Positions 8,297 to 47,434 of a DNA stretch of 64,000 nucleotides are shown here, piece by piece (position 1 is the stretch's first letter; every line of letters starts with the position of its first letter). The position numbers and the translations under genes were made by a program. Source of the DNA: an uncultured virus (IMG/VR IMGVR_UViG_3300013126_000020). Its lineage: Duplodnaviria > Heunggongvirae > Uroviricota > Caudoviricetes. The notes beneath the pieces were generated by a model, which made no database searches, was not told the origin of the DNA, and worked only from the letters and a program-made list of their open reading frames with translations. The stretch lies in IMG/VR virus record IMGVR_UViG_3300013126_000020; one strand, written 5' to 3'.

Positions 8297-9076
8297 ATGA
8301 ACATCGACGGAACATATAAGGTTGGCAATAACAAGTATTTATACCTAAATAGCAAAACGGGAGAGGGGTTTGAGAAGCTAATTAGCCTAATGCGTGGCTT
8401 TCTGAATCACCAGCTAAATACCATGGAGTTCCCCAGTTTTGGCCGTGATGATCTCGAGCAGGAGATGCTGACTCTTGCGATGGAGGCGCTGCCGAGGTAC
8501 GACGAGACAAAGCCTGCGAATCTACTGACGTTCCTCCAGAACCACATCAAAAACCGTCTGATCAATATGTGCAAGTTCTTCTCACAGAAGAGGCGATGTG
8601 CAACCTATATTTCTGCTGATTCACAGAAAGTGCGCTGCAATTCCTGCAGGACTTTCTTCCGTGCAAAGCAGAGCCTTGAGGTGCTTACCTGCCCAAAATG
8701 TGGTGAATCCGCTGAGAAGCACAGTGGTATGTGGAAGTTCTACAACCTTATTGCGATCCCCGGTCAGATTGCCGTAGATGATAGCGATGCCCAGCTAGAG
8801 CAGGAGATCGATCCAGACAACGCTCAATTTACCGCAATAGGATGCGGCGGCGGGACGCTCACCACCGATCACGGGATTGATATTTTGAAGCTTCTAGGGC
8901 AGGAAGACGACGTAAATAGATCAATAATCAATCTAGTTTATCAGGGATACAGCCGTCAGGAAATAGCACTAAAGCTTGGGTTGACATCGGCCGTAGTAAG
9001 CAAAAACCTAGCCGAAGTTTGTAATAGGCTTAAGAATAAGATAACCGAGGACAGTAATGAATTTTCAGCTTTTTAA
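8297..9076 (+). CDS. sigma-70-like RNA polymerase sigma factor with central zinc ribbon
   Basis: region-2-like DDLEQE...ALPRYD...LLTFLQNHIKNRLIN; region-4 HTH YSRQEIALKLGLT; CNSC...CPKC between them; GAGG SD before 8297. Confidence 0.8.
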   Translation: MNIDGTYKVGNNKYLYLNSKTGEGFEKLISLMRGFLNHQLNTMEFPSFGRDDLEQEMLTLAMEALPRYDETKPANLLTFLQNHIKNRLINMCKFFSQKRRCATYISADSQKVRCNSCRTFFRAKQSLEVLTCPKCGESAEKHSGMWKFYNLIAIPGQIAVDDSDAQLEQEIDPDNAQFTAIGCGGGTLTTDHGIDILKLLGQEDDVNRSIINLVYQGYSRQEIALKLGLTSAVVSKNLAEVCNRLKNKITEDSNEFSAF

Positions 9077-12000
9077 GACTGCCGCCTTCGATAACGCCGT
9101 CACTCTACCCAGGGTCGGGTTTCTCTCTGGAGTACTGCGAAGCTTGGTTGCCCCGCTATACGCTTTTCATGATGAAAAACACCCTGAGCTAGAGTTTTTG
9201 GCGCTAAGTCTTGCTGATCATTTTGCCGGCGCGGACCCGGAGACAAGGCTATTCCTGTCTCTGCGCTCACGAGACCCTTATGAGCTCGTCAATAAAAAGC
9301 TGCTCTCATTTAAGATGTCGCAGCTCCGAGCCTTTGCCGACGGCATAGAGAATCCCAGCGTTGAGCTCAGCGATGACAATATTCGCAAGCTAGTTGACCT
9401 CGTTATGCACGAGGCAGTATTCCTCGCATGGGAAGAATTCTTGCGCTCCAACCCTCGCGCGGCCCTGCTCGCTGGAGCAGAGGGCCTTGCTCCATCGGAG
9501 CTGGTCAAGACTGCAGCGAAGAAGAAGAAGAACGCCCCCGCGATTGCTGAAGCAGAAGGTGGAGCCGAAGCTGAAGGTGGAGCTGAAGGCGGCGCGGTAC
9601 AGCGTGGGCGCCTTCAGCGTCGCACGGGAGGTGAAGTCTACTCGCTAAGGGCCCCTACCATTAGCCAGGGCAGAGATGAAGTTGCTGTTTTGGCATACGA
9701 GGCCCTTCACAATGCTCTGGTAATGTCCTCGTTGCTTGAGGGCACCCTCCAGCATAGCGCCGGAACCACCAGGGCATTTAGGGAGCGATCACTTTCTATT
9801 TTAATACATCACGCTGATCAAGTCGACGAAATTGATAATTTCCGCGCAGCAGTCGCAGAGATATGTGCCTCTAATCAGCAGCGGCCTATTGTAAACGGCC
9901 TTCCACTTGTCAGTGATCCTCCGATGGGCGATATTCTCGGCTCTGATTTCTCCAGGTGGACCAGGTCCTCCGTCGTCGACGACGATAATGATGGCAAAGA
10001 ACACCATCCTGCGGGATTTGTAACTGCCATGGCACTTGGCGTTGACGCAAATACACGAAGAAATGCGGCAGAAACAAGTCTGCAAATTCGTAGAACTATT
10101 ATGGGGAAAGAAGCTGCCGGACCATCAATTATCTTAGGTACTGGGCGAGCTGCAATTGGGGCTCATAAGCGCCTTGCATCGGCATTTTCCTCAGAACCTG
10201 ACAAGCTTAAGTCTGCCATTCATGGGATTGTCGTTGCAGGCCTGAATGCCAAGATCAGAGCCATGAAAATAAATGGAGTGCCAACAGCCCCGTGGCTCGG
10301 TATTATCCCGGCGCTGACCTACCCTGATATAAAGCAAAAGGCCGATGCTGCACTGGGCAGAATCCTTGGAAGCATCGATGGCAATTTCTCATCTCTGGAG
10401 GAGGCTGCGCAGATATGCAATGCCGCGGTTGATAGCGAGGCTGCTAATGCGGATCTGCAAAAGGTAGCGCGCTCGCGGTGGGTCACCAAGCAAAATCATC
10501 CCACGGAAGAGCTGGGCAGCTCGTTCCTGCACTTTTTGGCGAGCACAATCTTGGGGCTACCGATCAAGCTTGCCTCACTATGGAAGGAAATGGTTATTAC
10601 AGAGGCCCTTGCTCCGATTCCCAAGCTAGATATATCAAAGGAGGTTCAAGTAGGGGGTAAAACACTAACTGTAAAGCAGCTCGCAAGCCTGCTCGGTACT
10701 TCCACTGTTGCCGACAAGGCGGCACGGACCTCGGTTGCGGCACAGGATGCAATCATAAATCTATTTAGCCACTCTACGGTTTCAAGCTCCGACCTGTTTA
10801 TCGCATCTTTTGATTATATCAAAGGCCTTGACAGCGCCCCACAAATTATCAGAGCTAGAGAGAAGGCAGTGACCAACATAAAGCGAGCCGTAGAGTCCGC
10901 TCGTGCTGCCATTACAAGGCAGCTGGCAGAGCTCAGGGCCAGCAAAGAGGCCGCAGAGCAGTCTGGCACAGCAGAGAGCCTCGACAGCATACGGCTGTAT
11001 GGCGAGACCATGAGTGCCGATGTGGCACAGGCGCTTCTGGAGTTGCCCCGAGAAGATCTTAGCGCCGCAGTCTTTGCAAGCCTGATAATGTCTTTCGACA
11101 GCACCTCGCTGCCACAAGCCGATCTACAGGCGACATGCAAAAAGATAATTGCTAGTAATGGTAAGCTATATGAAGGAGAAAATCTAAAGGACTTTGCAGA
11201 GCTATTTGCTAAAGCAATCCCTCCTAACTTTAATCGCCAGCGCCCCGCGCAGGTTGCGTCTGATTTCCTAGGGTCCTCCAAAAGGTACCAAGATGCACTC
11301 CTCTCGGAAGAAGTAACCGGAGAGGAGGGCGCAGATGCACTCGCAAACCTTGGCACAGGTCTAGATAGAATTCAGACAGGGACGGCAGATGCTTCTGCAA
11401 CTTGGTTTATGCACAGGGCATCTAGTATTGCCCTCGTAAAAAACCTGTTGTCTGAGCACATCGCAGTAACCCTTGACGACAATGAGAAGAAAATAAAGCA
11501 GGAGATCGAGGATCATGTCGCTGTCGATCCAGCCTCGGGCCTGAGCAAGAGTCTTAAGCAAGACATTGATAGCAAGATTGAGGATCTAGAGAGAACGGGT
11601 ATCCTGGGTCAGCGTGGCTTTGAGATAGATGCACAGGCCGATGACCTAAAGGAATCAGAATCAAAAGCTGTCAATCCAGAGCAAGCCGTGGTCCTCCGCA
11701 ATGTTAATCGGTTTTTGCGCAAGAACTCGAAGAGCTCAATCCTGGCAGAGCTACAGCGGCGTGGTTTTGACGAAACCTATTACGACGCATTACTTGTACT
11801 TGTTTCTCGAAAAATCGGAGTTCAGTTCGCCGAAATGCTGGAGAAGAATGCACTGTCGCGCTATTCCGCCAAGAAAGAGATGACCCAGTCCCTTGGGTCT
11901 GGCGGCGAGGTCAGTGTCTCGCGCACCGACCGTGATGGTGATCGTGACTACGGCGGTGGTGGCGGTCGCGATACCGGCGCCGAGGCCAGCGAGAACGAGG

Positions 12001-15000
12001 GCCTAGCCCAAGAATCTGCCGAAGCCCAAAAGATTCTCGGCAGTGGCGAGATTAAGAGTTTTGTGTCGAAGTGGTATACCTACCCGGTGTATGACTCGAA
12101 GGGCAACATCGGCGCGCAGTCTCTGGCGGGCTTTTTAGCAAATGCAATGCACAAAGCAGACCTGGCCCAAAATGGAGATGCCAAGGCCAAGGAGTACATA
12201 GAGTATATAACTAAAGACCCAGCCGTGAAAACTGGAAATGTGCGGACTCACCCCCTTTCGATGATGATGAAGCATGCCGTTCGCAATGCAGTTGGTGCTG
12301 AGCTGTTTCTTGATCCTGCGCGGAAAAATCTTGCTACGATCATTTCCTATAACAAGGCAAGCGGAAGCGATATAGTTTCATATGCCAAAGTAGCCGCGGA
12401 CATCGGGCTACTAGCAGATCCGATTCGTGCCGCAGAGAACCTAGCCGCTGGAGATCGGCGCGGAGACACTTATCGCCGTGCCTTTGAGAGAATGCTGATG
12501 AAAGCCGGCCATATGAAGGTAGACAATTATGAAATCTGGAAAGCCGGTATGCTAGAGGAGCTGCAGGTATTTAGAAAACAACAGATTGCTAAAATCGACT
12601 CACTTCTGGCGCGGGGCGTAATAACTGCTAGCTCCAAGAACATGCTAACAACCATTCTCGATAGAAAATTCAATGGAAGTGCCGCATTTGATGCCACGTA
12701 TTTGTCAACAGAAGAGGCGGATGCGCTCCTGGTAATTGGCAAGGCTATTGGCGCACAACTGGTTCCAGCTGTTGATGACATCCTGCGCGAGACCATTGCT
12801 TCTCCAGAGTTTGAGGCAGCCGCGAGGAACGCAAAGGATGATGTCCAGGCTATTGCGAAGGACGTAAAAGACGACAAGAAAAAGAGCTATGGCAGATTCC
12901 TGCAGCAAAGGCTCGATGCAGCGGGATTTCCCGCGGCAGATGTTAGCCTTGGCGAAAAAATAAAAGCAATTATGGAAGTTCGCAGGATGCGGACCCCGCC
13001 CGCCGATCCTAAGGCTGTGAAGGTTTTTAATAGCAACCTGAAGAAATTTGAGAGCAGTCTGCCGACACTTCGTGCATCGCAGGACCGACTCATTTCATCG
13101 ATTGTCAAGGCTGATGAGTTCCGCAGTGCGATTAGCCAATGGGCCAGTGAGCGCGGAGAAGAAATCAAGGCGCTTGTCGCAGCCGCTGATTTCGGCAACA
13201 AGGTTGCCGGAGCCCGCATGCTTGGCGCGGCCTTCAGAATAGCTATTAAGCAGGAGCTCGGAGAAGATGCAGAATCATCTTTTATGGATGCATCTGGCGG
13301 GTATTCTAATCTATTTGCCAGAGAAGACCTTGGTACAATCGTCAGCTTGCTAGTTGACTCTATAGAGCTTTATTTGAAGGACATTACTGACGCGTCACCG
13401 GAACGTGCGTCGCTTCTTAAGAAGAAGCTAGAGTCGACAGCTGTGACAGTGGGCACCGCATCTGTTGAGTCGGAAGGCCTGCTTCGGGTGCAGCAGCTTT
13501 CTCAGTTTGCCGATGGCACTCGCCTGATTGACGCTATTTCTGATGCGACAAAGAGTCTTCCGCAGCTGAAAATGTTTATGCAAACAGTAATAGCAGATAA
13601 AACCAGCCTTGCACTGCGCGGAGGAAGGGCGCTCCCTCAGACTCGACAGATGCTTGCCGAGGTCGCATCTCTGTTTGCTGAAAATAGCCCCGAGGTAGAG
13701 AGGATTGCCAAGGCCGCTCGTGGCAGCGAGAGCGACGAGGGGCGTGAGAAAAATCTGCGGCGCTACCGCCGTCTGGCGGCAGATGCGGCAGGCATACTGG
13801 AAGTAATATCCGAGCAGGTGGCGGTCGCCAGCGCTTCGGCAAATGAGATAGAAGAGGCCAAGAGCACGGCCTCTTTGATCACCGGCAGTGCCGCTCACAA
13901 TGAGATGTTGCGGCTAGAAGATGCTCTTCGCGCGGCTCGACTGCCACGGAGCCACGCCTTCTCTACGTACAAACGCACTTATGAGATGCATGCCGCCCAT
14001 GTGGCAGATGTTGCACAGAAGTACGCCAAGGCGGTCGAGCAGAACTACGGCTCTATGTTCGAGGCCCAAGAGCGGCTCAAGGCCAGCGGCAAGACTGTTG
14101 AAACTGCGACTCCGGAAGAGTTGGAGAGGGTGTTTCGACAGATCGCATCGGGATCGGTAGTCGGCCCGCAGCTAGACGCCAAGGTGCGAGAGATTAATGC
14201 CTCTCCGCTTGAATTCTTGCTAAAGAATCCAGACCTTATCGGAGTGGTACAGAGGCGATTTAATCTGGCCCAGATTAAAGAAGCATTTCTAAGTGCCGGA
14301 TTCGCACAACCGCTGTCTAGCATCCTAGCAGATTTTGCAGTGCAGGACGCAGGCGATCTTAGGGCCGTCCTCGCCAGCCGACCGGGATCCTATGCTAAGC
14401 TCAATAAATGGGTCGATGGTCAAAAAGGAACTCCCGAAGAGCGAAAGGCAGCGACAAAGAGCAAGGTGGCCAAGATAATGGACAATCACCTCTCTGAAGT
14501 GATCGCTGCAAATGCCAATAGCTTGGCAAGAAGAGCTCTTGATCTCCCCGAAGAAGAGGAAGAAGCGGACGATGTCGATCAAAGGCGCATTGCGGCCCAG
14601 GTCGAATTTGCGAAAACAAAAGGCGTCGAGATCTTCAAGAAGATCGCATATGCAGAAGCCAAGGTGCAACAAACTGCCGAGTTGGCCGCAGCCGCCGCCA
14701 AGGGACGCGATGTTGTTTCAGATGAGTTCCGCCGGGGCTTTGCAGAGGCACAGCAGCAGCGCGAGCTTGCACAAGAGATCAGTCCAGCAGACGACATTAT
14801 CAACTTTTCAGAAATTGTTCTGGAAGAAGACGAGGTAGTCACCAGTGAAGAGACTGAGCAGAAACGGAAGGTAAGGACAGAAATCGTTAATTTCTGCACC
14901 TCTTTCATGCGCAGGGATATGGGCAACAACATCGGCAAGGTCTTCGGCGACTTTATCAGTGCACTGCGGGCGCAGATCGATAATGAGTCGGTGCTTGACA

Positions 15001-16592
15001 AGCTCGAAGTCAGCGACCTGATCACCCTTAATACCGACTATATTACGCGCCTCAAGAATATCAAAGCAAATGCAAGGTCTGTGAAAGATGTCGGCAATAT
15101 GCTCGTGGCTCTTTCAAAAGATATTGAGCGCGTCGTATTCAAGAACACGACTTCCATCGCCTTCTCTCCAGCGGCAGAGAAGGATGAGAGCCGTTTTGAA
15201 TCAGAGCTTGACAAAGTCTTGGCGCGAATGAATGCTAAGATAGACAGCACCCTGAGCAAACCTGGAGTCAGCGCCGCGGAAGGCGACGACATGTCCCTTG
15301 CGGAGAAGGGGCTTGAGAATATCAGGCTCTCACTAAACTCTATCTCGCAGGACAAGCGTCAGGTCAACGGCGACCGTCTAGATGAAAAGGGCGTAATGTC
15401 AGTGCTCGCAGATATTGAAAAACTTATAGCGCCAGCCACTGCAGAAAGGGCCACGCCAGCGATCATGAAAACTCTCATGGACAAACTCGGGCTATTTGGC
15501 CTGTCGTCAAACCAACCAGGAGTCGGCTATTACGAGATCGGTGTACCACTTGTAATCCCAGACTCATCCGGCTTCCAGGCGGCAGTGGACCAGCTTGAGA
15601 GCGAGGTTGAGCAAGCGAAGCTCGGCTCAGGTCCGGCGGCTGCGGATGAATATCTTCCGCTAGAGAGCCTTGTGCGTGCATATTCTGAAGGCATGTACCA
15701 GTTTGCGCGCTCCGCCGACGTGGCAGCTGCGACTAGCCTGCTCTCGTCTCTGTTGCCAGGCATAAACGCAGGCTCTAAGATGAGCGAAAAACAAGTTAGC
15801 GAAATCCACTCTAAGCTAGCGGACATGGGAGTCATAACCAAGGCTCCTACTGCACCGCATGTGGTGGAAATCCATGATGTTCCACGGGTCGAGCCAATTG
15901 GCCCTGAGCAGCCGCCAGAGGCGCCACAGACTGCGGTTTCGCCACTAATGGACATTCAAGAGGGCAGGCTATCGCCTCCTCGTGCAGAGTCACCCGAGGA
16001 AGAGATTATCGAAGTCTCGGAAGGGGACATCGAACCTGTTGACGAAGGGGACATCGAACCTGTTGACGAAGAGGGCATCGAACCTGTTAGCGAAAATGAT
16101 GGTAGTGAAGAGCTCGATGAAATCCCGGCGGGAGAGGTCTATTTAATAGAGCAAGAACCTGCCGTCGCCCCTGCTCCATCGAAGGTCACTCCGACCCCGA
16201 TTGATCTCGGCCCTAAGCCCATGTCACAGGAGTCCCTCGAGGTGCTGGACAGAATTATAGAAGAAGCAGATACGATCAATAATATGCTGGCCGCGGCAGG
16301 AGTTGCGGGCCCAGTGCACGAGTCGCTAACCGGTATTAAGAACAGGCTAACGGCTGCAAGGGCCTCTGGCGTAGTAGCTGACGACCTGGATCAGCTCGTG
16401 GATGTTCTTGATCGTGCCATGGCCTTGTCTGATGAAGTAGCGGCGGGCGATCCAAGCGCGTTTGCTACGATTGCTCCGCCTGCAATGGCAGACTTGTTAG
16501 AGGGTGTGAGCAAGATTATCATGCCCAAGAAGGCCAACTCACGTCCTCCTGCATTTATACGAGATGGCGATAGTTGGACAGTGCTAGTGTGA
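9057..16592 (+). CDS. giant (2511 aa) Ala-rich helical orphan protein, possibly an internal virion protein
   Basis: 7.5-kb ORF with GAGG SD and a downstream terminator; begins MNFQLFKTAA; acidic Pro-rich C-terminal region. Confidence 0.85.
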   Translation: MNFQLFKTAAFDNAVTLPRVGFLSGVLRSLVAPLYAFHDEKHPELEFLALSLADHFAGADPETRLFLSLRSRDPYELVNKKLLSFKMSQLRAFADGIENPSVELSDDNIRKLVDLVMHEAVFLAWEEFLRSNPRAALLAGAEGLAPSELVKTAAKKKKNAPAIAEAEGGAEAEGGAEGGAVQRGRLQRRTGGEVYSLRAPTISQGRDEVAVLAYEALHNALVMSSLLEGTLQHSAGTTRAFRERSLSILIHHADQVDEIDNFRAAVAEICASNQQRPIVNGLPLVSDPPMGDILGSDFSRWTRSSVVDDDNDGKEHHPAGFVTAMALGVDANTRRNAAETSLQIRRTIMGKEAAGPSIILGTGRAAIGAHKRLASAFSSEPDKLKSAIHGIVVAGLNAKIRAMKINGVPTAPWLGIIPALTYPDIKQKADAALGRILGSIDGNFSSLEEAAQICNAAVDSEAANADLQKVARSRWVTKQNHPTEELGSSFLHFLASTILGLPIKLASLWKEMVITEALAPIPKLDISKEVQVGGKTLTVKQLASLLGTSTVADKAARTSVAAQDAIINLFSHSTVSSSDLFIASFDYIKGLDSAPQIIRAREKAVTNIKRAVESARAAITRQLAELRASKEAAEQSGTAESLDSIRLYGETMSADVAQALLELPREDLSAAVFASLIMSFDSTSLPQADLQATCKKIIASNGKLYEGENLKDFAELFAKAIPPNFNRQRPAQVASDFLGSSKRYQDALLSEEVTGEEGADALANLGTGLDRIQTGTADASATWFMHRASSIALVKNLLSEHIAVTLDDNEKKIKQEIEDHVAVDPASGLSKSLKQDIDSKIEDLERTGILGQRGFEIDAQADDLKESESKAVNPEQAVVLRNVNRFLRKNSKSSILAELQRRGFDETYYDALLVLVSRKIGVQFAEMLEKNALSRYSAKKEMTQSLGSGGEVSVSRTDRDGDRDYGGGGGRDTGAEASENEGLAQESAEAQKILGSGEIKSFVSKWYTYPVYDSKGNIGAQSLAGFLANAMHKADLAQNGDAKAKEYIEYITKDPAVKTGNVRTHPLSMMMKHAVRNAVGAELFLDPARKNLATIISYNKASGSDIVSYAKVAADIGLLADPIRAAENLAAGDRRGDTYRRAFERMLMKAGHMKVDNYEIWKAGMLEELQVFRKQQIAKIDSLLARGVITASSKNMLTTILDRKFNGSAAFDATYLSTEEADALLVIGKAIGAQLVPAVDDILRETIASPEFEAAARNAKDDVQAIAKDVKDDKKKSYGRFLQQRLDAAGFPAADVSLGEKIKAIMEVRRMRTPPADPKAVKVFNSNLKKFESSLPTLRASQDRLISSIVKADEFRSAISQWASERGEEIKALVAAADFGNKVAGARMLGAAFRIAIKQELGEDAESSFMDASGGYSNLFAREDLGTIVSLLVDSIELYLKDITDASPERASLLKKKLESTAVTVGTASVESEGLLRVQQLSQFADGTRLIDAISDATKSLPQLKMFMQTVIADKTSLALRGGRALPQTRQMLAEVASLFAENSPEVERIAKAARGSESDEGREKNLRRYRRLAADAAGILEVISEQVAVASASANEIEEAKSTASLITGSAAHNEMLRLEDALRAARLPRSHAFSTYKRTYEMHAAHVADVAQKYAKAVEQNYGSMFEAQERLKASGKTVETATPEELERVFRQIASGSVVGPQLDAKVREINASPLEFLLKNPDLIGVVQRRFNLAQIKEAFLSAGFAQPLSSILADFAVQDAGDLRAVLASRPGSYAKLNKWVDGQKGTPEERKAATKSKVAKIMDNHLSEVIAANANSLARRALDLPEEEEEADDVDQRRIAAQVEFAKTKGVEIFKKIAYAEAKVQQTAELAAAAAKGRDVVSDEFRRGFAEAQQQRELAQEISPADDIINFSEIVLEEDEVVTSEETEQKRKVRTEIVNFCTSFMRRDMGNNIGKVFGDFISALRAQIDNESVLDKLEVSDLITLNTDYITRLKNIKANARSVKDVGNMLVALSKDIERVVFKNTTSIAFSPAAEKDESRFESELDKVLARMNAKIDSTLSKPGVSAAEGDDMSLAEKGLENIRLSLNSISQDKRQVNGDRLDEKGVMSVLADIEKLIAPATAERATPAIMKTLMDKLGLFGLSSNQPGVGYYEIGVPLVIPDSSGFQAAVDQLESEVEQAKLGSGPAAADEYLPLESLVRAYSEGMYQFARSADVAAATSLLSSLLPGINAGSKMSEKQVSEIHSKLADMGVITKAPTAPHVVEIHDVPRVEPIGPEQPPEAPQTAVSPLMDIQEGRLSPPRAESPEEEIIEVSEGDIEPVDEGDIEPVDEEGIEPVSENDGSEELDEIPAGEVYLIEQEPAVAPAPSKVTPTPIDLGPKPMSQESLEVLDRIIEEADTINNMLAAAGVAGPVHESLTGIKNRLTAARASGVVADDLDQLVDVLDRAMALSDEVAAGDPSAFATIAPPAMADLLEGVSKIIMPKKANSRPPAFIRDGDSWTVLV
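16020..16088 (+). repeat. 24-bp coding tandem repeat (EGDIEPVD x~3)
   Basis: GAAGGGGACATCGAACCTGTTGAC twice exactly plus a degenerate third copy. Confidence 0.9.
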
Positions 16593-16619
16593 AGAGGGCG
16601 CCCTTCGGGGCGCTTTTTT
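16592..16619 (+). terminator. intrinsic terminator
   Basis: GCGCCC-TTCG-GGGCGC followed by TTTTTT. Confidence 0.85.
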
Positions 16620-16657
16620 CATGTCCGCACATTATTCGCCCGGGTGTAATTGCTGGC

Positions 16658-17899
16658 ATGACCAACATCCAACACTCGCTCCTTGAAAAAGACGGAAAAT
16701 ATATCGTCGACATTACAGTTCCAGGGCCTCTTGTAGAAAAAGCTCTGAATGCGGCGGCCCAGGCTATTGCAGATAAGGCAGAGGTCCCAGGCTTCCGGCC
16801 TGGAGCAGCCCCTCTCGCCATCGTGCGACAGCACTATGCGCCTCAACTAAAGGCCCAGGTTTCTTCCAGGCTTGTACAGGAGGCTACCCGAGACGCGCTA
16901 CGAACTCTGCAAATCTCTGCCGGAGCCAGACCAATGGTGCTACCAGAATTCAGGCCCGCTGGTATTCGCAAGTGGGTAGGTCGATTCGAGCTCAATGGCA
17001 CCTTCAAGTTCGCAGTCGCTACAGACGTGCCTCCGGCAGTTACCACCGTGGACATCGACGGGATCACTGTAACGCCTCATACCGATGATCCTAATGCGGT
17101 CATTGACGAACAGCTGCACCACTTGCGCCACGATCTTGCTATCAAGTCCCCTTCGAGCCAGCCATCAACGGAGCTAGATGAGATCATTTGCTCTATTGTT
17201 GCGCTTGACCAGAATGGACAGGCACTCCCAGAAATGTCACTGGCCAGCTTCCCGCTGTCTCTTGATCTACAAAAGGAAGCCCTACTAAGCCGTACCATGG
17301 CCGCCCAGCTAATCGGCAGGCGCCCTAGTGATCAGGTGGAGTTTTCAGAAGATGGCCTCACCTATCGAATTTCCATCGAAGCAGTCAACATAAAGACCCT
17401 GCCAGTTCTAGATGATGCGTTGGCTCAGCAGTGCGGAATCGCTTCGCTGCAGGAGCTTCGTGATCGAATCCACGAGGAGTGGCTACTGCGAAATGCCGCC
17501 CGAATCAGGCGAGATCTTCACATGCAAGTTCGCGAACAGCTTGTGGCCAAGAACCCATTCCAAGTTCCGGAGGCCTGGACAGCAGATTATCGGGAAAAAG
17601 TTCAGAGTCTGGCAGATTTTTCCGAAGCACTCCAGGAGAGCGAAGAGCGAGCTGCCCGATTTGCCCAGATCTACGCCGCGTCAGACTACCTACTAGAGAT
17701 TATCGAAGAAAAGTTTTCAAGTGAAGTACAGCTGTCGGACGCAGATTTGCTTAATTACGCCAAAGAAGAGCTGGGCGTGTCTGGAGTAAAACCCGAAGAT
17801 TATATCAAGGTTATGCTGGCAAAGGGCCAGTACGATTCATGGGTTCTTCAGCAGAAGAAGACGAAAACGCTCGATTGGCTTATTACAAGGGCCAAGTGA
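16658..17899 (+). CDS. tig: trigger-factor-like chaperone
   Basis: ribosome-binding signature VPGFRPGAAP, LPVLDDALAQ, NPFQVPE and C-terminal KTLDWL; start re-assigned to ATG 16658. Confidence 0.85.
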   Translation: MTNIQHSLLEKDGKYIVDITVPGPLVEKALNAAAQAIADKAEVPGFRPGAAPLAIVRQHYAPQLKAQVSSRLVQEATRDALRTLQISAGARPMVLPEFRPAGIRKWVGRFELNGTFKFAVATDVPPAVTTVDIDGITVTPHTDDPNAVIDEQLHHLRHDLAIKSPSSQPSTELDEIICSIVALDQNGQALPEMSLASFPLSLDLQKEALLSRTMAAQLIGRRPSDQVEFSEDGLTYRISIEAVNIKTLPVLDDALAQQCGIASLQELRDRIHEEWLLRNAARIRRDLHMQVREQLVAKNPFQVPEAWTADYREKVQSLADFSEALQESEERAARFAQIYAASDYLLEIIEEKFSSEVQLSDADLLNYAKEELGVSGVKPEDYIKVMLAKGQYDSWVLQQKKTKTLDWLITRAK

Positions 17900-18599: not shown

Positions 18600-21500
18600 A
18601 TGACCAAGTTCGTAAACCTGCACGGCCACACCTACGGATCCGTACTTGACGCGATTGTTCGACCCAGCGAGCTTTTCCGCCGGGCGAAGGAGCTCGGCCA
18701 GAAAGCCGTGGCGATCACGGATCATGGCAATATGTCGCAGATTTACCCAGCATACAAAGAATCTAAGAAGCACGGCGTCAAGCTTATTCCGGGCAATGAG
18801 ATCTATTTTGTTGAGAATCTCGACAACCCAAAGTCAAAGCGACGCCACCTCGTACTCCTGGCCGCAAATCACCAAGGGTACAAGAACCTTTGCCGCATTA
18901 CGTATGAGGGCTTCAAGAACTCGGTCACAGTAATGGGCAAGGAGTTTCCTCGTGTAACGGCAGAAACTCTTCGCAAGTACAACGAAGGCCTTTTTGCTAC
19001 ATCCGCTTGCGGTGGCAGCATCATTGCCGCCCACCTTTATGAAGGCGATAGCGACGGGGCCGACCGCCATGCTCGCACGTTTGCCGAGATCTTTGGCAAT
19101 CGCTTCTTTATCGAGATTCAGCCGCATGCACTAAAACGCGGAAACTTCGACCAGATCGCTTTAAATAACATGCTCAAGGGCGTGGCCGACCGGCTTGGCA
19201 TTCAGATGGTTGCGACGTGCGATTCACACTATCTTGTGCCGGAGGACGAGAAATTCCACGACATGGTTCTCGCCATCAGCGATAAGAAATCCCTTTCTGA
19301 CCTGACGCGGCACCGCTACGTCAGCAGCATTCCCTGCGCGGCCTGCGCCGGCTCGGGATGCGATGAATGTGGCAATACCGGCATCGGCGAGATCATTCCG
19401 TGCCCAGAGTTCTATCTAAAGCACGAGGATGAGATCCGCGCCTTCTTCTCGAAGCAGTACTCGCCCGAGTTTGCAGAGCAGCTAATCTCCAACACTTCCA
19501 TGATTGCAGATCAGTGCGAAGAGCCCAAGTACCTGGAACCAACTGGCGAAAGAATTCCTAAATATGACATGCGCATGATCGCTGGCTGCCCAGACAGCGA
19601 AGAGTTCCGGACATGGCTAGCAGAGAAGCCTGCACGCGGCGCCATTCCGGTTGATAATGCCTATTTGCGCTTCCGGGTTGCGAAACGCTACCGGGAGTAT
19701 ACGAAGACTTTTGACCGCGCTCGTCAGAAGCAGTACTGGGAGCGGCTAGAGGCAGAACTTGAAATCCTCGAGACCCGTGGGTTTTGCAGTTACATGCTTA
19801 TTGTTGCTGACGCTATCCAGTGGGCAGAGTCTCAGGATGTGTGGACCGGCATTGCTCGCGGTTCAGCGGGCTCAAGCCTTATTGCATATTTTCTCGGAAT
19901 TCATAAGCTTGATCCCATTCCATACGGACTTCTATTCGAGCGCTTCCAGAACAAGGAGCGTGCGCAGTGCCCCGACATCGACACGGATATCCTGTCATCT
20001 GGACGTGATCGCCTTATTAAGTATATGTCGGAGCGCTGGGGAGCGGAGTACGTCGCTCAGATCACTAACGCAAATCGCATTACGCCCAAGGTTGCAATCA
20101 AGGATATCGCAAAGTCCCTGGAGGTTGGCGGCACTCGCCAGGCCTCGTTCTCAATTGCTGAGAAAATCACAAAGGAGATCCCTCTCAAGGTTACGAAGCC
20201 CGATGGCAAGATTATCGAGATTAATACTGTTGCTCTTGCCAAAGAGTACAGCCCCACGCTTGTCGATTTCTTTAAGCAGTACCCAGAGGTCGAAGCCCAT
20301 GCAGAAAAGGTCGTAGGCTTGCCACGTAGCTGGGGTGTGCATGCCGGTGGCGTTATCGTTAGCGACGTGTCGCTGCCAGACAACTTCCCGCTGCGGCGGG
20401 ATTCTGATGGCACCGTAAGCGTTCACTATGACAAGTACGTGTCAGAAGAAGTAGGCCTTATCAAGATCGACATGCTTGGCCTAGATACGCTCGATGTGCT
20501 GCGCGAGGCCTATCTGACTGCTCGCAAGATGGGCATCAATCTGCCTAAACCATGGGAAGTACCAGAGGACGACCAGCAGGTTTACAAGATGATTTCCGAT
20601 GGCGATGTGCTCGGCCTTTTCCAGCTAGAGGGCGGCACCCTTGCGCAGCTGTGCAAGCCAATGCAGCCCAGGAACATTGAAGATATTTCTCTCATCAACG
20701 CTCTTGGTCGCCCTGGCGTTGACAAGGCAAAGCGCAAGCAGTTTATCGACCGTCGCTTCGGACGGCAAAAGGTGGACTATGCTCACGCCGAGCTCGAGCA
20801 CATCTCTAAGCCAACTCTTGGCATCTCTGTTTACGACGAAGACTTGCTGAAAATTGCCAGCCATATTGCCGGATGGAGCCTTTCCGAGGCCGATGGTCTG
20901 CGCAAGCTGACCAAGCTAAAGGAGAAGGGCGCAGATCTTGCGGCCAAACTGGAGAAGAAGTTCGTTGACGACGCTGAGCGGCTAGGTCGTGTGGCGCGCA
21001 AGGATGCGCAATACATCTGGGACAATGTTATTGCCGATTATGCCAAATACGGATTTTGTATCGCAGGCGACCAGCTTGTTGAGACAATCGACGGTCCGCG
21101 CCCCATTTCCGCTATCAGCAGTGGCACAGTTGTTAAATTTATCGATCTTCATACTGGCGGTTTCAAGTATGCGCCAGCTAGCAAAGTCTGGTCGACCGGC
21201 AAGAAGCAGGCTTTCAAGGTGACCTTTGAAAGCGGTCATACGGTCTCTGCCACGGAGGACCACCGCTTTTACGACCACCGGGCCGGAGGCTGGGTGCAGT
21301 TTAAACAGGTCATCTCTGCCGGCGCAGCGAGCCGCACTAATGGCTTTGGCGCATGGATCGCGGATCCTGTGACAGAGGTATTAGACCTGGGAGAAGTAGA
21401 GGTCTACGACATGGAGATGCCAGTCGACCCGAATTTCATCCTTCCGGGTGGCTTCGTGGCCCACAACTGCAAAGCCCACAGCGTTGCCTACGCCCGGATG

Positions 21501-22466
21501 GGTTATGCGACGGCCTACTACAAGTATCATGCCCGAGCAACTTTCCTTTGCTCTTACCTAAACCAAGAGATTGCAAAGAAAACGCCGGACACTGCCGCGT
21601 ACATTGAACAGATCAAGAAAGAGATTCTTTCCTCCAAGATCGCAATCCGTGCCTGCGACATCAATCTGAGCGGCGATAGGTATCGGGCGATTGATCGCAA
21701 GACTATTGTTACTGGCTTGAATGCTGTCAACGGAGTTGGTGACGTAGCAATTTCGCATATTTTTGCTGGCCAGCCATATACCGCGTTTGCTGACTTCATT
21801 TATCGCAGCCCCTCTTCTGTTAACCGCAAGACTATTATCTCACTGGCCAAGGCTGGCGCATTTGACGGCTTCGGCATTTCACGCAAGTGGATTTGTGACA
21901 CGTTCTCAGAGGAGAAGGCCGCCAAGCGCTTGCGCATGAAGATTAACAGTCTCGGTGACGCAGCCACCCAGGATGGTGCCGCAGAGGCCAAGGACATTGA
22001 TTGGAGCAGTTTCGACTACCTCTCTACAAAAGAGGAAATGACCAGGGAGTGGACTCGCAAAGAGATCCTTCTTGCCGAGAAAGAAGCTCTTGGAGAATTC
22101 ATCTCTGGCTCTGCCGAAGAGGTATTTGGCGGCTTCTTCAAGAACATCAACAATCCGCTTACCCGTGCGCAGTTGCAAGCCCTGCCAAATTATCACAAAG
22201 TTATGCTGGAAGGCGTTATACTTGGGATAGACCAGATTCCGGTTCGGACAGGCAAGAATGCGGGCAGAATGCAGGGCAAGATTAAGATCGAGTCCCTGAA
22301 GAAAGAAGATTTTGAAGTATCGGTTTGGCCGGATGACTGGGAAAGCACAAAGCCCCGTCTGGAAGTAGGATCTCCAGTGATCCTACGCTGCACTGTAAAA
22401 GAGTGGAACGAGTCAAAATCTCTTAGCCTAGAGGATGTAGTTTCAGTTTGGAAGGAGCCCAAGTGA
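18600..22466 (+). CDS. dnaE: DNA polymerase III alpha subunit with mini-intein
   Basis: PHP domain (LHGHT, ITDHG, CDSHY), RGSAGSSL, PDIDTD, KIDMLGL, YGF|CKAHSVAY and a C-terminal OB fold. Confidence 0.96.
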   Translation: MTKFVNLHGHTYGSVLDAIVRPSELFRRAKELGQKAVAITDHGNMSQIYPAYKESKKHGVKLIPGNEIYFVENLDNPKSKRRHLVLLAANHQGYKNLCRITYEGFKNSVTVMGKEFPRVTAETLRKYNEGLFATSACGGSIIAAHLYEGDSDGADRHARTFAEIFGNRFFIEIQPHALKRGNFDQIALNNMLKGVADRLGIQMVATCDSHYLVPEDEKFHDMVLAISDKKSLSDLTRHRYVSSIPCAACAGSGCDECGNTGIGEIIPCPEFYLKHEDEIRAFFSKQYSPEFAEQLISNTSMIADQCEEPKYLEPTGERIPKYDMRMIAGCPDSEEFRTWLAEKPARGAIPVDNAYLRFRVAKRYREYTKTFDRARQKQYWERLEAELEILETRGFCSYMLIVADAIQWAESQDVWTGIARGSAGSSLIAYFLGIHKLDPIPYGLLFERFQNKERAQCPDIDTDILSSGRDRLIKYMSERWGAEYVAQITNANRITPKVAIKDIAKSLEVGGTRQASFSIAEKITKEIPLKVTKPDGKIIEINTVALAKEYSPTLVDFFKQYPEVEAHAEKVVGLPRSWGVHAGGVIVSDVSLPDNFPLRRDSDGTVSVHYDKYVSEEVGLIKIDMLGLDTLDVLREAYLTARKMGINLPKPWEVPEDDQQVYKMISDGDVLGLFQLEGGTLAQLCKPMQPRNIEDISLINALGRPGVDKAKRKQFIDRRFGRQKVDYAHAELEHISKPTLGISVYDEDLLKIASHIAGWSLSEADGLRKLTKLKEKGADLAAKLEKKFVDDAERLGRVARKDAQYIWDNVIADYAKYGFCIAGDQLVETIDGPRPISAISSGTVVKFIDLHTGGFKYAPASKVWSTGKKQAFKVTFESGHTVSATEDHRFYDHRAGGWVQFKQVISAGAASRTNGFGAWIADPVTEVLDLGEVEVYDMEMPVDPNFILPGGFVAHNCKAHSVAYARMGYATAYYKYHARATFLCSYLNQEIAKKTPDTAAYIEQIKKEILSSKIAIRACDINLSGDRYRAIDRKTIVTGLNAVNGVGDVAISHIFAGQPYTAFADFIYRSPSSVNRKTIISLAKAGAFDGFGISRKWICDTFSEEKAAKRLRMKINSLGDAATQDGAAEAKDIDWSSFDYLSTKEEMTREWTRKEILLAEKEALGEFISGSAEEVFGGFFKNINNPLTRAQLQALPNYHKVMLEGVILGIDQIPVRTGKNAGRMQGKIKIESLKKEDFEVSVWPDDWESTKPRLEVGSPVILRCTVKEWNESKSLSLEDVVSVWKEPK
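21057..21467 (+). mobile_element. mini-intein (137 aa, no endonuclease)
   Basis: CIAGDQLV... start, block B ATEDHRF, VYDMEM...FVAHN|C end. Confidence 0.9.
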
Positions 22467-31694: not shown

Positions 31695-31722
31695 AAAGAG
31701 GCCGGGGTTACCCGGCCTTCTT
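31695..31722. terminator. hairpin between convergent genes (probable bidirectional terminator)
   Basis: AGGCCGGG-GTTA-CCCGGCCT. Confidence 0.7.
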
Positions 31723-33157: not shown

Positions 33158-33481
33158 ATGACTTTTTCGCTTTTTAAGATTGCCGTTAATCCGTCGATGT
33201 CTAGCTACCTGGACGAGAGTGATACCCATCCTCGCTGGACGCCTCAATATGCGGCTCATGGGCACGGGCCACTCGCGGCCAAGAGAGGAGATCCTCTGCC
33301 GACTCCTGAGAATTTTGGGCATATTATTGTTGCTCCTACCAAAGATGGAAAAATTAACTTTGAATATTTTGTCCGGAACTGCCCATATAATATTCTTGAA
33401 CAGATGTTTGCCGATATTCCTGGGTTTTTAACGGATCCACATCACATAGATTTCATACAAAATATCTTAGATGGAAACTAA
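33158..33481 (+). CDS. hypothetical protein beginning MTFSLFKIA; probably the N-terminal part of the downstream in-frame ORF
   Basis: GGGAG SD; same frame as 33494..35203, separated by a single TAA. Confidence 0.6.
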   Translation: MTFSLFKIAVNPSMSSYLDESDTHPRWTPQYAAHGHGPLAAKRGDPLPTPENFGHIIVAPTKDGKINFEYFVRNCPYNILEQMFADIPGFLTDPHHIDFIQNILDGN

Positions 33482-33493
33482 GAACTTAAACCT

Positions 33494-35203
33494 GTGATAG
33501 AGGAAAGAATAGAGCGGGCATATTCGAAGCCATTTCTTTTTAGCGAGAAAAGCAGGCTGGCTATCGAGCATGGGTTGCATCCTTATTCTTATGATATCGG
33601 CGGCGAACATAAAATAAAAGACTTGCATGCCAAAGTAAAAAGCATCTCTAATCAAATTGGAAAGCAATTTGATCCAAGAAAAGGCAACATAGCCGCTGCA
33701 TTTTTTAAAGGGAATATGGGACATACTGAGCGCTATCTGCGGTACGTGCTAAGCACTTCGCAGTACAAAACAAGAGTCGAAGAAAGGCCTGCTGACATAG
33801 CGAAGCGCATAGGCGTAAGTTTATCAGACCTAGTGAAGCTAAATCCTCAGCTAGCTAATGCTGCGACTGTGCCACCAGCTAGCACCATAAAGATCCCACC
33901 TATGCTAGAGGTAAAGCATCTCGACGAGAGTGCACTGCCCGACGCCGAGGCACTCTTCAGGTCGATCAATGCGATTAGCTCGCTTTTTGGTCGGAGTGCC
34001 GGCGTCGGTGGAGGTGACGACATCGCACTCGAATGGCTCGCAAAGTGCAAAGGAAGTGCTAGCAGAGTGGATAAAGTCAAAAATCTAGCAGGGCTGGCCG
34101 ACATTTACCATCAAATGCACTTCACGCTACCGACAGCACCAAATGCACTCCATTCGCAGGCAGTGAATGGAAATAAAAATGCTATGAATTTTATGCGTAA
34201 TTACCTATTATTGCGTGACTTTTCTCCCGAAAAAATAACAGAAGCCCAAGACCATGCGCGAGAATATCTAAATCTAAACATCGATATTGCTCAAAATCTA
34301 GAAACTATAGAGAAGCTTGGAGTTATCGGCGACCAACAATCTAAATTTATCAGGGTCGTTCAAATAATTTTGAATGCAGCTTCGGTCATAAATGGAGTTA
34401 TGACTTATAAGAAGCATGCGGCACCAAAAGCACCAGAGCTGTTTAATTTAGATCATGAAATACTTGCAGGTCACTTGCGATTCCGCGTACTCAAGGACAA
34501 GGATCCCTATCACTTTACGGTTGGCGCAGACACAAATTGTTGTCAAGTTATAAAAGGAGCTGGAGAGGATTCAGCGGTACAATCATATGTAAATCCTCTG
34601 GCCGGAGTACTAGTACTGGAATGCAATAAGGGCGGGACTTGGGAGACCGTTGCGCAGTCATACTTTCATTATGTACCGGCACAACAGCAGTATATTCTAG
34701 ACAATGTAGAAGAAAATGCTGATATGACTAAGTACATGTCTAATACCTATGGCACAAATTTGCAGTCGATTTATGCTATATTTGCAAATGAAATAAAGAA
34801 AAAAATGCCTCATGTCAAAGACATGGTTGCGGGAATGAGCTATTCAAAAATAGGAGAGACGGAAGCCTGGGAAACCGGATCCATGCCCAAAGATCCAAGG
34901 TATTATCACAAGCTGGATTTGACTTCCCAGCAAGAAGAAGAAGAAGAAGAAGAAGAGGAGGAAGATGAGGAAGATGAGGAAGATGAGGAAGATGAGGAGG
35001 AGAGTGAATTTGAGGGCTACTCGGATTTTAGCCACATACAGCACTTAAACCTGCAATCGCCAAAGTTTGAGGTAAAGCCTCCGGTCGCCACCCCCGGCCT
35101 AGCGCCGGCGCCGAAGGCGCAAGAGGCTGAAAAGAAAGAGGCGCGATTCAGGAGGCTAACTCTGTTTAAGGCCGCATCAAATTCATTCCGCCTCTTCCGC
35201 TAA
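33494..35203 (+). CDS. LysM-containing protein with a TNCCQ...DNVE domain and poly-Glu tract
   Basis: ADIAKRIGVSLSDLVKLNPQL...TIKIP is LysM-like; E/D tract at ~34933-35003. Confidence 0.7.
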   Translation: MIEERIERAYSKPFLFSEKSRLAIEHGLHPYSYDIGGEHKIKDLHAKVKSISNQIGKQFDPRKGNIAAAFFKGNMGHTERYLRYVLSTSQYKTRVEERPADIAKRIGVSLSDLVKLNPQLANAATVPPASTIKIPPMLEVKHLDESALPDAEALFRSINAISSLFGRSAGVGGGDDIALEWLAKCKGSASRVDKVKNLAGLADIYHQMHFTLPTAPNALHSQAVNGNKNAMNFMRNYLLLRDFSPEKITEAQDHAREYLNLNIDIAQNLETIEKLGVIGDQQSKFIRVVQIILNAASVINGVMTYKKHAAPKAPELFNLDHEILAGHLRFRVLKDKDPYHFTVGADTNCCQVIKGAGEDSAVQSYVNPLAGVLVLECNKGGTWETVAQSYFHYVPAQQQYILDNVEENADMTKYMSNTYGTNLQSIYAIFANEIKKKMPHVKDMVAGMSYSKIGETEAWETGSMPKDPRYYHKLDLTSQQEEEEEEEEEEDEEDEEDEEDEEESEFEGYSDFSHIQHLNLQSPKFEVKPPVATPGLAPAPKAQEAEKKEARFRRLTLFKAASNSFRLFR

Positions 35204-35248: not shown

Positions 35249-35665
35249 ATGAACTTTCAGTTTTTTAAACGTGCCAGCCCGGCACTAGCCGCCGGAGCCG
35301 CGATAGTAGCCAGCAGCACCGGCAGAATACTGCTCCAACTGCGCGCTCCTCATCTAAGCGCCGGTGGTACATGGAGCCTTGTAGGCGGTGGCATCGAACC
35401 AGGCGAATCACCCGAACAAGCGCTGTTTCGCGAAATCACAGAAGAAACAGGCGCCGTACTAGCAGGCAATCCCCAGCACCTGTACACCAATAAGAAAAAA
35501 CACCTACATTACCTCAGCTATCTGCTGCGCATCCCAGAAGAGTTCGAACCAGTAAACAGCGAGGAGTCCGCCGAGCACCGGTGGGTAGATGCAACCGATC
35601 TGCCGCAACCACTGCACCCAGGGATGAAGCCGTTGGTGCCAATCCTGTTGCGAATACTAAAATAA
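35249..35665 (+). CDS. Nudix hydrolase
   Basis: Nudix box GGIEPGESPEQALFREITEETG; PLHPG tail. Confidence 0.92.
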   Translation: MNFQFFKRASPALAAGAAIVASSTGRILLQLRAPHLSAGGTWSLVGGGIEPGESPEQALFREITEETGAVLAGNPQHLYTNKKKHLHYLSYLLRIPEEFEPVNSEESAEHRWVDATDLPQPLHPGMKPLVPILLRILK

Positions 35666-37642: not shown

Positions 37643-37915
37643 TTACTTTAGCTTGTTTATATTGTCTAGAATATCTACAAGCAATGTTGCATTCTCTGGT
37701 GGGCCATCGACCGTCTGGGCGGCCTTGATTATGGCTACTGCTTCTCGCGCTTTTAGTGCCTGAGGGCTGACTCTTCGCACGGGGAGAGTGGCCGCTTGCT
37801 TAGCCAGGTTCTGAAACCGATCCCCGATATCCATGGCTAGGCGAGCCTTGCGAGCGTCACCCTTCTGTAGGAATTTCTGCGCCAGGTCATACGCAGCAGC
37901 AGTCTTTTTAAACAT
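37643..37915 (-). CDS. small basic helical protein (MFKKTAAA...)
   Basis: GAGAGG SD on the minus strand; TGTAAATAT motif upstream. Confidence 0.7.
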   Translation of the reverse strand: MFKKTAAAYDLAQKFLQKGDARKARLAMDIGDRFQNLAKQAATLPVRRVSPQALKAREAVAIIKAAQTVDGPPENATLLVDILDNINKLK

Positions 37916-37926: not shown

Positions 37927-37986
37927 TATGGGGCCCGGTATGGGGCCCGGTATGGGGCCCGGTATGGGGCCCGGTATGGGGCCCGG
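37927..37986. repeat. 12-bp perfect tandem repeat x5 (TATGGGGCCCGG)
   Basis: five exact adjacent copies with no spacers. Confidence 0.97.
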
Positions 37987-38028
37987 TTAAACTTTCATAT
38001 TTGATATTTACAGATTCATAGATGCAAC

Positions 38029-45980: not shown

Positions 45981-46331
45981 TCAGAATTCTGTTTTTGAAA
46001 TGAGGTCCAGTGCGGCATCGATCTGGTCGGCAGCATCGCGCTGACAAGCAGAGTCTAGTGCAGCTGCGACCTTGACCAACTCGCCCATGAGAGATGCCTT
46101 GCGACTCTGGCGAGCATTGAGAGCGAACTGAATCTGCCCAAGCAATTCCCGCTCGGCCTTGGTCAACTTCTTGTCGCCCTCCGCCCTCTCCTGTAACTCT
46201 TTCTTCTTCTTTTTTAGAAGCGAGGTCGGGATTTTCTTGTCTTGCTGGATCTTGAGCTTCTTGTGCAGTTCGCCCTTTTCCTCTAGATTGACGGCCCCTT
46301 GCATCCACTTATTGTCTTTTCCTTTTGCCAT
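45981..46331 (-). CDS. small Lys-rich protein (possible DNA-condensing protein) with C-terminal AxxLD...AD helical module
   Basis: KWMQGAV...GELHKKL...KKIP basic domain; GGAG SD; ACTAAATAT upstream. Confidence 0.7.
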   Translation of the reverse strand: MAKGKDNKWMQGAVNLEEKGELHKKLKIQQDKKIPTSLLKKKKKELQERAEGDKKLTKAERELLGQIQFALNARQSRKASLMGELVKVAAALDSACQRDAADQIDAALDLISKTEF

Positions 46332-46382
46332 TTTTTACTCCGGATAGCTTACTAGCTGATTATCGTTCGAGATATTTAGTAG

Positions 46383-46610: not shown

Positions 46611-46684
46611 CTTTGATGAAAGCTTGCTGGGCTTTTAAAGCAGACATGCATTCTTCTGCGCTATTACTTAGCGTAGCATTACAC

Positions 46685-47434
46685 ATGGCTAATTTTCCAC
46701 TGTTTAAGCGCGCTGGGCATGAGCTGAGATCTGAAGCTGGCATTCTCGATTTCATAAAAGATCTTGGATCCAAGGCCATTGACCTACTGGACTCTGATGT
46801 CGCAAGAAGTATAAAAGATTTACCCGAGAATTTTTTAGCAGGTATTTCCGATAAGGATAGTGGTTTACATAGTAGCAAAAAACCTTCGCCCGAGCAGGTA
46901 AAAAAATATATTCAGAAAGTGGTTTCTGAGCGCGAGAGCACTCGACCAAGTGGCAAAAAGATCACCGTTACAAAGCTGCAGACCGTTCCTGGTCCTGCTG
47001 GATCTGATGACGCATTCTATGGCAAGATCTTATCTGGAATCGGCGCTCCTGTGACTCCAGAAAATAAAAGATTTATGTACGCCTGGCGGGTGGCTGAGGG
47101 AGGGCAGGCTGCTTTCAATCCATTTAATACAACGCAGGGCGCGCCGGGTGCGACAAACTACAATACTGCTGGTGTCAAGAACTATACCAGCGAAGAGCAA
47201 GGCGTGGCGGCAACTGTAAAAACTCTGCTAAATGGCAGATATGGCGAGATTGTATCAGTGCTCCGTGATGGAGGACCTGGGGCCTCTGCGGCAGCTGCTC
47301 AGGCTCTTGCTCGCAGTCCGTGGGGGACTGGAGAGCTTGTCTTTAGAGTTTTAAAAGGAAGAGGTCAGCGCAAGCCCATTTACCAGCTACCTGAAGCCGA
47401 AGAGGATGGCGAAACTATTCATATGAATAGCTAA
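46685..47434 (+). CDS. protein with C-terminal lysozyme-like (putative peptidoglycan hydrolase) domain; begins MANFPLFKRA
   Basis: AWRVAEGG...NPFNTT...GVKNY...QGVAATVKTL...SPWGT resembles lysozyme-fold virion hydrolases. Confidence 0.6.
   Translation: MANFPLFKRAGHELRSEAGILDFIKDLGSKAIDLLDSDVARSIKDLPENFLAGISDKDSGLHSSKKPSPEQVKKYIQKVVSERESTRPSGKKITVTKLQTVPGPAGSDDAFYGKILSGIGAPVTPENKRFMYAWRVAEGGQAAFNPFNTTQGAPGATNYNTAGVKNYTSEEQGVAATVKTLLNGRYGEIVSVLRDGGPGASAAAAQALARSPWGTGELVFRVLKGRGQRKPIYQLPEAEEDGETIHMNS

Follow-up and report, generated by a model that had tools for sequence, protein, structure and literature searches.

The closest described counterpart of the element studied here is the capsid-targeting sequence (CTS) of bacteriophage T4, in which residues 4 and 7 serve targeting and residues 8 and 10 processing; the prohead protease gp21 cuts after L/I-X-E, both termini of Alt are trimmed, and the motif also occurs close to the start of gp21 itself (available text of PMC9026906). 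Here we analyze a stretch of 64,000 nucleotides from an uncultured virus of the Caudoviricetes (IMG/VR record IMGVR_UViG_3300013126_000020), hereafter the window, in which otherwise unrelated proteins begin with a short sequence of the form M-x-F-x-[LF]-F-K-x-A, hereafter the tag. A preliminary description of the window had interpreted this sequence as a portable label that loads diverse proteins into the phage head for ejection into the host.

The T4 internal proteins IPII and IPIII begin with MKTYQEFIAE, and their residues Y4, F7, I8 and E10 lie at the same distances from the end of the leader as F3, F6, K7 and A9 of the tag, which constitutes a match of pattern. Further likenesses to the CTS/gp21 system are a leader of about 10 residues on unrelated proteins, two aromatic residues followed at the same spacing by a three-residue terminal motif, a gp21-fold protease, the recurrence of the terminal motif (here as a sequence motif only) in scaffold, capsid protein and protease and, as in Alt, one protein tagged at both ends. 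In contrast, the T4 leader is acidic and ends in L/I-x-E, whereas the tag, known from sequence alone, is basic and ends in K-x-A. The head genes of the window also differ from those of T4 in resembling those of phage G, in a protease fused to a scaffold-like region of about 1000 residues, and in the coexistence of a putative second, hairpin-type leader. Giant phages phiKZ (gp175) and SPN3US (gp245) cut head proteins at a short motif with a gp21-related protease, and short propeptides of 20-24 residues exist among them, but cleavage follows Glu (A-X-E in SPN3US), most propeptides span 111-254 residues and the available accounts describe no shared portable leader. Moraphages were set aside as a comparison, being T4-group-like (available text of PMC12619734). 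No K-x-A rule or capsid-targeting leader for this phage group was found in a literature search that left subscription journals largely uncovered and in which supplements may still bear on the question.

Occurrence of the tag and selection on its peptide

The gene content of the window (DnaE, SbcCD, RecA, a primase, the large terminase at 55232, the portal at 57100 and the head maturation protease at 62343) indicates that it comes from a jumbo phage. Bacillus phage G, to which this phage is related, is the nearest one in culture. The comparison set consisted of relatives: a complete record of 371,675 bp (G002), with a portal 92% identical to that of the window; three closer relatives available as fragments (G001, which lacks a portal, G003 and G004); and more distant relatives (G005, G007 and G008), with capsids 57-59% identical to the G002 capsid. 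The protease is 34% identical to phage G gp19, the G002 capsid 45% to gp27 and the portal 29% to gp14, and protein identities in this 29-45% range suggest a distant relative of Donellivirus, outside the genus. The G002 capsid matches gp27 and cluster C mycobacteriophages, with no T4-type record among the best 40 of 223 matches (no direct comparison with gp23 was run). Our own greedy gene caller skipped a G003 gene at 2857; the motif scan was redone independently of gene calls, and gene-based counts are lower bounds for this reason.

The window contains the following tags:

9057..9083, plus strand: MNFQLFKTA, on a 2511-residue protein (9057-16592); identical peptide in the G002 orthologue
33158..33184, plus strand: MTFSLFKIA, acquired by capture of the ancestral Nudix 5' end; the first codons and the DNA before them align with the Nudix start in G002 and G004
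35249..35275, plus strand: MNFQFFKRA, on a Nudix hydrolase (35249-35665; Pfam NUDIX, E 7e-20)
46685..46714, plus strand: MANFPLFKRA, on a protein of 249 residues (46685-47434) whose lysozyme fold resembles GH73 glucosaminidases, from a VIA structure match

The extended strings reported in the preliminary description, MNFQLFKTAA (9057), MTFSLFKIAV (33158), MNFQFFKRAS (35249) and MANFPLFKRAG (46685), together with MFKKTAAA (37915, minus strand) and DFSLVKVTK (62168-62194), are all found where it had placed them; LTLFKAAS is also present, at 35156-35179, the coordinate of 35157 given for it being one base out of frame. Across all six frames of the window, F-x-[LF]-F-K-x-A matches exactly four times, each 2-3 residues past an ATG, against a chance expectation of 0.019 (20,780 residues in 61 window proteins). 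The resulting frequency, 4 of 62 window genes, was not approached by shuffled controls, with no instance in 300 protein shuffles and, over 20 triplet-shuffled windows, an average of 0.05. The window sequences themselves served to define the motif, and G002 was used as a replication set: 7 of its 521 called genes are tagged, one with Ile replacing the second Phe, for a shuffle mean of 0.013. The enrichment anticipated in the preliminary description is hence present in both the window and a relative. Three of the seven G002 genes are orthologues of the giant, Nudix and lysozyme-like genes, while four carry new cargo, and BLASTP (E<0.01) returned only orthologue matches among the proteins behind the tags.

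The starts at 9057 and 35249 are the first ATG in their respective frames, and those at 33158 and 46685 are internal ATGs within longer open reading frames (ORFs; 33122 and 46589). The 46685 start is backed by the G002 lysozyme-like orthologue, in which the frame is closed two codons ahead of the Met, and the 33158 start by 5' DNA shared with the Nudix genes of relatives. The giant-protein tag is encoded in the window and in G002 with four synonymous and no amino-acid changes over nine codons, and three aligned segments of the two proteins are just 24-32% identical; the residues right after the tag are also partly conserved, making the contrast between tag and body smaller locally. This comparison indicates, as synonymous codon differences had led the preliminary description to propose, that selection acts on the tag peptide. 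As a whole, the G002 orthologue of the giant protein is far more diverged than the portal.

No name could be assigned to the 2511-residue protein, which had no match in Pfam, PHROG or NCBIfam and, for its first 1200 residues, no usable match in the ESM Atlas. A model of the 46685 protein aligned with the catalytic domain of AtlA (VIA Z 8.2, rmsd 3.2, 117 residues aligned), and the five highest-ranking VIA matches each represent a cell-wall hydrolase or a T6SS effector complex; Foldseek returned no match for this model. Its Glu138 (codon 47096-47098) is invariant and its N-terminus is modeled with low confidence. The gene was not found in G005-G009. Among the best 150 of 3509 homologues of the lysozyme-like domain, four carry the strict tag; a looser filter on the same 150, used without a shuffle control and with genomic context unchecked, classed 6 leaders as K-x-A-type and 20 as basic I/L-x-E-type, leaving 124 as neither. 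One enzyme domain thus occurs with either leader ending, which is what leaders fitted to the local head protease should show.

Of 12 aligned Nudix sequences, 8, all at least 62% identical, carry the tag and the four distant ones lack it; among 65 distinct metagenome sequences (from 79 of 80 loci) it is present in 2 and missing from 63. A signal peptide at the Nudix start was considered and rejected, the hydrophobic stretch after the tag aligning with the first conserved strand of the family. The G003 Nudix gene is frameshifted (G003:C1:7345-7759).

The cassette locus upstream of the Nudix gene

The DNA preceding the Nudix gene (33158-35203) differs in cargo among the relatives and contains these features:

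33158..35203, plus strand: probable single cargo gene of about 681 codons with tags at both ends and an in-frame TAA at 33479-33481, from a shared frame
35156..35203, plus strand: C-terminal tag LTLFKAA-SNSFRLFR; an unrelated 794-residue G003 gene at this locus ends FPLFKRS-SRQFRLFR

G002 and G004 have no extra gene here; their Nudix gene begins M[IT]FSLFKRA, and the DNA in front of it is the DNA found in front of position 33158 in the window. The number of unrelated tagged genes before Nudix, of 680-800 residues, is zero in G002 and G004, one in the window and G001, and two in G003, where proteins of 683 residues (MKFPLFKVA) and 794 residues (MTFSLFKTA ... FPLFKRSSRQFRLFR) match neither each other nor the window cargo by BLAST. 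One contig from run X4 has the 3' end of the window cargo directly before the start of the 794-residue gene. The sample is small, with six stretches for the tag DNA and two for the C-terminal DNA recovered in a collection scan; none of the carriers listed is on record as RNA. Judging from these arrangements, the tag is portable, with unrelated cargo exchanged behind a constant sequence.

The segments 33158-33481 and 33494-35203 lie in the same frame with one TAA between them. This TAA is present in runs X1-X3 and in G001, but another X4 contig, at a depth of 4.5 and with 28 differences over 314 bases, reads through the site with a sense codon and lacks the downstream GTG start. From the shared frame and this single low-depth contig, 33158-35203 is probably one doubly tagged gene interrupted by a stop, so that the 33158 tag and LTLFKAAS, previously counted as separate instances, probably belong together. 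The cargo contains a LysM match (E 0.005, below the cut-off), a conserved unnamed domain and an acidic run. Neither Pfam nor NCBIfam names it, searches of the ESM Atlas with 33494 returned only unnamed clusters below 0.8, and the 107-residue piece at 33158 had no match in 40 homologues of 33494. Many of the homologues of 33494-35203 over residues 250-470 (P0286-P0325) end in tails with K-x-A, and one of them (P0324) bears an RNA polymerase alpha C-terminal domain.

Head module, protease and the K-x-A core

The tag ends in hydrophobic-x-K-x-A, a pattern that recurs in the head genes of the window:

47520..63998, plus strand: head module rich in hydrophobic-x-K-x-A, with terminase (55232), portal (57100) and protease (62343)
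62150..62197, plus strand: C-terminal KLKLA-SDFSLVKVTK of a head-module gene (61634-62197), kept in G002, G003 and G004, with a variant in G010
62343..63998, plus strand: prohead protease with a fused scaffold-like region, about 1300 residues at full length, N-terminus MSIIKSG; PHROG head maturation protease

A scan of 13 selected head-module and 9 replication proteins covered every X-x-Y pair that has a hydrophobic residue at the second position before it. KxA ranks first in the head-module set, with 29 instances observed and 8.0 expected (P 8e-9, about 3e-6 after 400 tests), whereas the best pair in the replication proteins reaches only P 0.004; no x-x-E pair figures in the top eight of the head-protein scan. 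Of 29 distinct capsid sequences, taken from 36 of 48 loci and from gp27, 27 have hydrophobic-x-[KR]-x-A near residue 25.

The protease model (pLDDT 80.8) aligned with T4 gp21 (5JBL) at Z 10.6 (rmsd 3.0, 145 residues aligned), well above the herpesvirus proteases of VZV (Z 5.5), HCMV (4.5) and KSHV (3.3). Homologues number 1033 at E<=1e-10, and hydrophobic-x-K-x-[AGS] lies near the start in all of the best 120, in a segment modeled with pLDDT below 50. Lys5, His146 (62778) and Ser197 (62931) are invariant in 46 aligned homologues, and the latter two would be catalytic. Herpesvirus assemblin (UL26/UL80) also places a protease of possibly related fold N-terminal to a scaffold and has Ala at P1; it differs in its weaker fold match and in belonging to a eukaryotic virus, and we know of no cargo leader for it. 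Alignment of the tag with the T4 leader would likewise place Ala at P1 for the window protease.

Proposed mechanism and alternative explanations

The best reading of these data is that the tag functions much as the T4 CTS does, although by its cut motif it would not be a member of that class. We consider it rather probable that it acts as a CTS-like leader combining loading with cutting, removed after K-x-A by the head protease. In the first step of such a mechanism, which is visible at the level of sequence, a peptide-selected tag of 9-10 residues spreads to unrelated late proteins by in-frame capture of tag DNA. By analogy with T4, its two aromatic residues would then bind the scaffold core and draw the protein into the prohead. 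The gp21-fold protease (62343) would cut after K-x-A and free the cargo, and the same cut would probably occur in the scaffold, the portal, the capsid protein and the protease itself. Finally, and this is the most conjectural step, the cargo (the Nudix and GH73-like hydrolases and large unnamed proteins) might be retained in the head and ejected into the host. The head-loading label proposed in the preliminary description thus gains in its portability and in its link to head maturation, through the protease fold, the K-x-A of head proteins, the CTS-like spacing and the cargo swaps. The whole tag cannot, however, be taken as the address: K-x-A is general among head proteins here, so that F-x-L-F alone can fill that role.

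Several observations weigh against this mechanism. The gene at 33158 took its 5' end from Nudix, so that of the four tagged genes described earlier as unrelated, which do carry unrelated cargo, only three have independent tags. By sequence matches, the strict F-x-L-F form is lineage-specific and confined to close relatives: G005, G008, G010 and G011 have no match, and the four in G007 and one in the first 200 kb of phage G all fall in ORFs of 17-57 residues that are not real genes. One tagged G002 gene is endonuclease-like and may be a chance carrier, its G007 homologue being untagged. Bare KxA is weakly enriched, 1.2-fold, in 120 full-length protease-scaffold proteins (2053 vs 1736), and many listed K-x-A sites may be due to chance or structure. 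The start of the window protease itself reads K-S-G rather than K-x-A, and no cleavage datum was found for any member of this protease group. One of the two capsid sequences lacking the motif is gp27, which has no N-terminal extension (the other is a mis-started sequence), and the capsid motif, in a segment of amphipathic appearance, may have a structural role. Furthermore, about 80% of SPN3US head proteins are uncleaved (available text of PMC10052503), and hence packaging need not use such tags.

Among the alternatives, the most serious, which we regard as unlikely, is that the tag is a processing site only, trimmed after K-x-A, with head entry or activation depending on other contacts and the aromatic residues forming extended protease subsites. 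This would fit the generality in head proteins of K-x-A with Phe, Leu or Ile two residues upstream, as well as the 7-residue propeptide of T4 Alt, which the available text of PMC9026906 does not call a targeting sequence. The first Phe, however, six residues before the Ala, is present on all N-terminal tags and unenriched at the corresponding position (-4) before scaffold KxA, and the appearance of new, unrelated cargo behind a full tag makes little sense for a bare cut site.

Less plausible still, and in our view distinctly improbable, is an uncut docking element, in which hydrophobic-x-K-x-A would form a helix face joining core proteins, capsid N-termini and cargo during prohead assembly. 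The amphipathic-looking segments containing the motif in the capsid N-terminus and the hairpin module agree with such a role, as do the motifs in the C-terminal tails of cargo homologues. Yet the tags stop at the boundary of folded cargo (strand 1 of Nudix and the low-confidence N-terminus of the 46685 model), their spacing equals that of a leader known to be cleaved, and leaders ending in the T4 cut motif occur on other proteins with the same enzyme domain.

We give very little credence to an effect at the nucleotide level, whether an AT-rich 5' coding stretch that aids translation or a tag carried along when a promoter and ribosome-binding site were captured. Nudix 5' DNA did accompany the 33158 tag, the first Phe of the tag is nearly always TTT, and TTT encodes 97 of 145 Phe residues at codons 2-11 of G002 ATG genes vs 2561 of 4422 overall; but the synonymous-only divergence of the giant-protein tags, the unrelated DNA upstream of independent tags and the similar peptides at C-termini all speak for the peptide. 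N-terminal hydrophobic-basic Clp degrons are known and ClpP, trigger factor and DnaJ are encoded in the window, but a degradation or chaperone signal for these proteins, unrelated to the head, is scarcely credible for a motif that tracks the head module rather than enzymes generally and does not vary at the N-terminus of the head protease.

If the CTS-like loading leader is correct, capsid targeting would reach beyond T4 into a large jumbo-phage group unrelated to it (that of the 1033 protease homologues), and the gp21 protease fold would gain an Ala specificity not found described in the literature searched. Ejected proteins would become predictable from sequence, yielding a short list of candidates for host takeover and counter-defence, and the cassette locus would show how new cargo acquires its address. 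More tentatively, and with considerable doubt, phage-G-like jumbo phages could be envisaged to have a head-loading code of their own, built from a gp21-fold protease specific for Ala, short leaders that differ between lineages and one leader of hairpin type, with the pre-Nudix locus as an array of unrelated genes of 680-800 residues, swapped or stacked behind tag DNA and some of them doubly tagged, giving strain-specific sets of ejected proteins.

Leaders in phage G

Phage G, as a cultured phage, offers a direct test system for the loading hypothesis. It has homologous portal, protease and HK97-fold capsid proteins and, like the window, leaders ending in K-x-A/S on unrelated genes, but differs in a dialect of the form K/R-R-L-I-K-K-A/S, in the lack of an N-terminal extension on gp27, in a protease that is not fused to scaffold and in GC content (30% vs 51%). 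A strict leader, R-[LI]-x-K-(x)-[AS], is present in 12 of its 702 called ORFs (0.47 expected), with a single related pair among them, and a loose form in 29 of 702 (7.4 expected from shuffling the first 15 residues). The sequence pattern hence indicates that phage G has a leader dialect of its own. Carriers include head-region gp17 and gp20, the Nudix protein gp334 and gp53, with the ferritin-like gp346 (MKRLFKKA) under the loose pattern. Candidates for removal of such a leader would be gp13, gp17, gp20, gp38, gp53, gp56, gp126, gp141, gp334, gp336, gp346 and gp508, together with the protease gp19. The match of gp53 to PARP-like proteins, weak and below the cut-off (E 2.5e-4), recalls T4 Alt. 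Detection of tagged gp346 in phage G particles is uninformative, because 55% of ORFs for nucleic-acid metabolism were detected in the particle preparation too (available text of PMC12484599). Leaders of K-x-A/S/G type also occur on several phage G H-[GHT]-T-[SD] proteins (35181, 81748, 163172, 178671, 245994, about 401800 and about 446700).

Other putative leaders and a candidate late promoter

Two further kinds of putative leader are encoded in the window, and distant relatives bear still other leaders ending in K-x-A:

37793..37915, minus strand: helical leader of about 38-41 residues (MFKKTAAA ... DRF-x-x-x-A) before variable cargo
45984..46079, minus strand: helical-hairpin module at the C-terminus of 45981-46331
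49628..49723, plus strand: helical-hairpin module, followed by KFA, in head gene 49493-50023
60585..60680, plus strand: helical-hairpin module (L-x-[KR]-x-A-x-x-[LA]-D-x-x-G...A-D-x-[IL]-D), followed by MKSA

MFKKTAAA, previously grouped with the tags, proved to be the start of the first of these, a different leader of about 38 residues. Over residues 1-38 of the 37915 gene, the window shares about 90% identity with G003/G004, as does G002 with G003, and beyond the leader three unrelated types of continuation occur in four records. Directly upstream of this gene, at about 37928-37988, lie five tandem G+C-rich units of 12 bases.

The hairpin, of about 30 residues at N- or C-termini and often flanked by K-x-A, was identified in 11 G002 and 3 window proteins with a profile seeded from regular-expression matches in the same protein set. 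The G002 genes include 14625, 19503, 20280, 24783, 25286, 61508, 77052 and 100746, and at the same threshold it is absent from G005, G007, G008 and the first 200 kb of phage G. This module may represent a second class of head-loading leader.

A candidate late promoter, CTA[ATG]NA[AT]T, picked post hoc after inspection, precedes 4 of 7 tagged, 5 of 9 hairpin and 11 of 505 other genes in G002. Several of these 11 are head-region genes, and the motif is also found before head and fibre genes. Its copies in the window are:

about 33095, about 46661 (with a one-base deviation) and about 47460: CTA[ATG]NA[AT]T

Other genes of the window

The remaining annotated genes include two with intein-like segments and a set of host-like genes:

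6343-8289: Cas4-like PD-(D/E)xK nuclease with a LAGLIDADG-bearing intein-like insert
18600-22466: DnaE with an intein-like segment
2-595, 16574-17899, 26522-27442, 31722-33092 (minus strand) and 52145-52858: host-like genes for ClpP, trigger factor, DnaJ, a KamA-family radical SAM enzyme and a poly(A)/CCA nucleotidyltransferase

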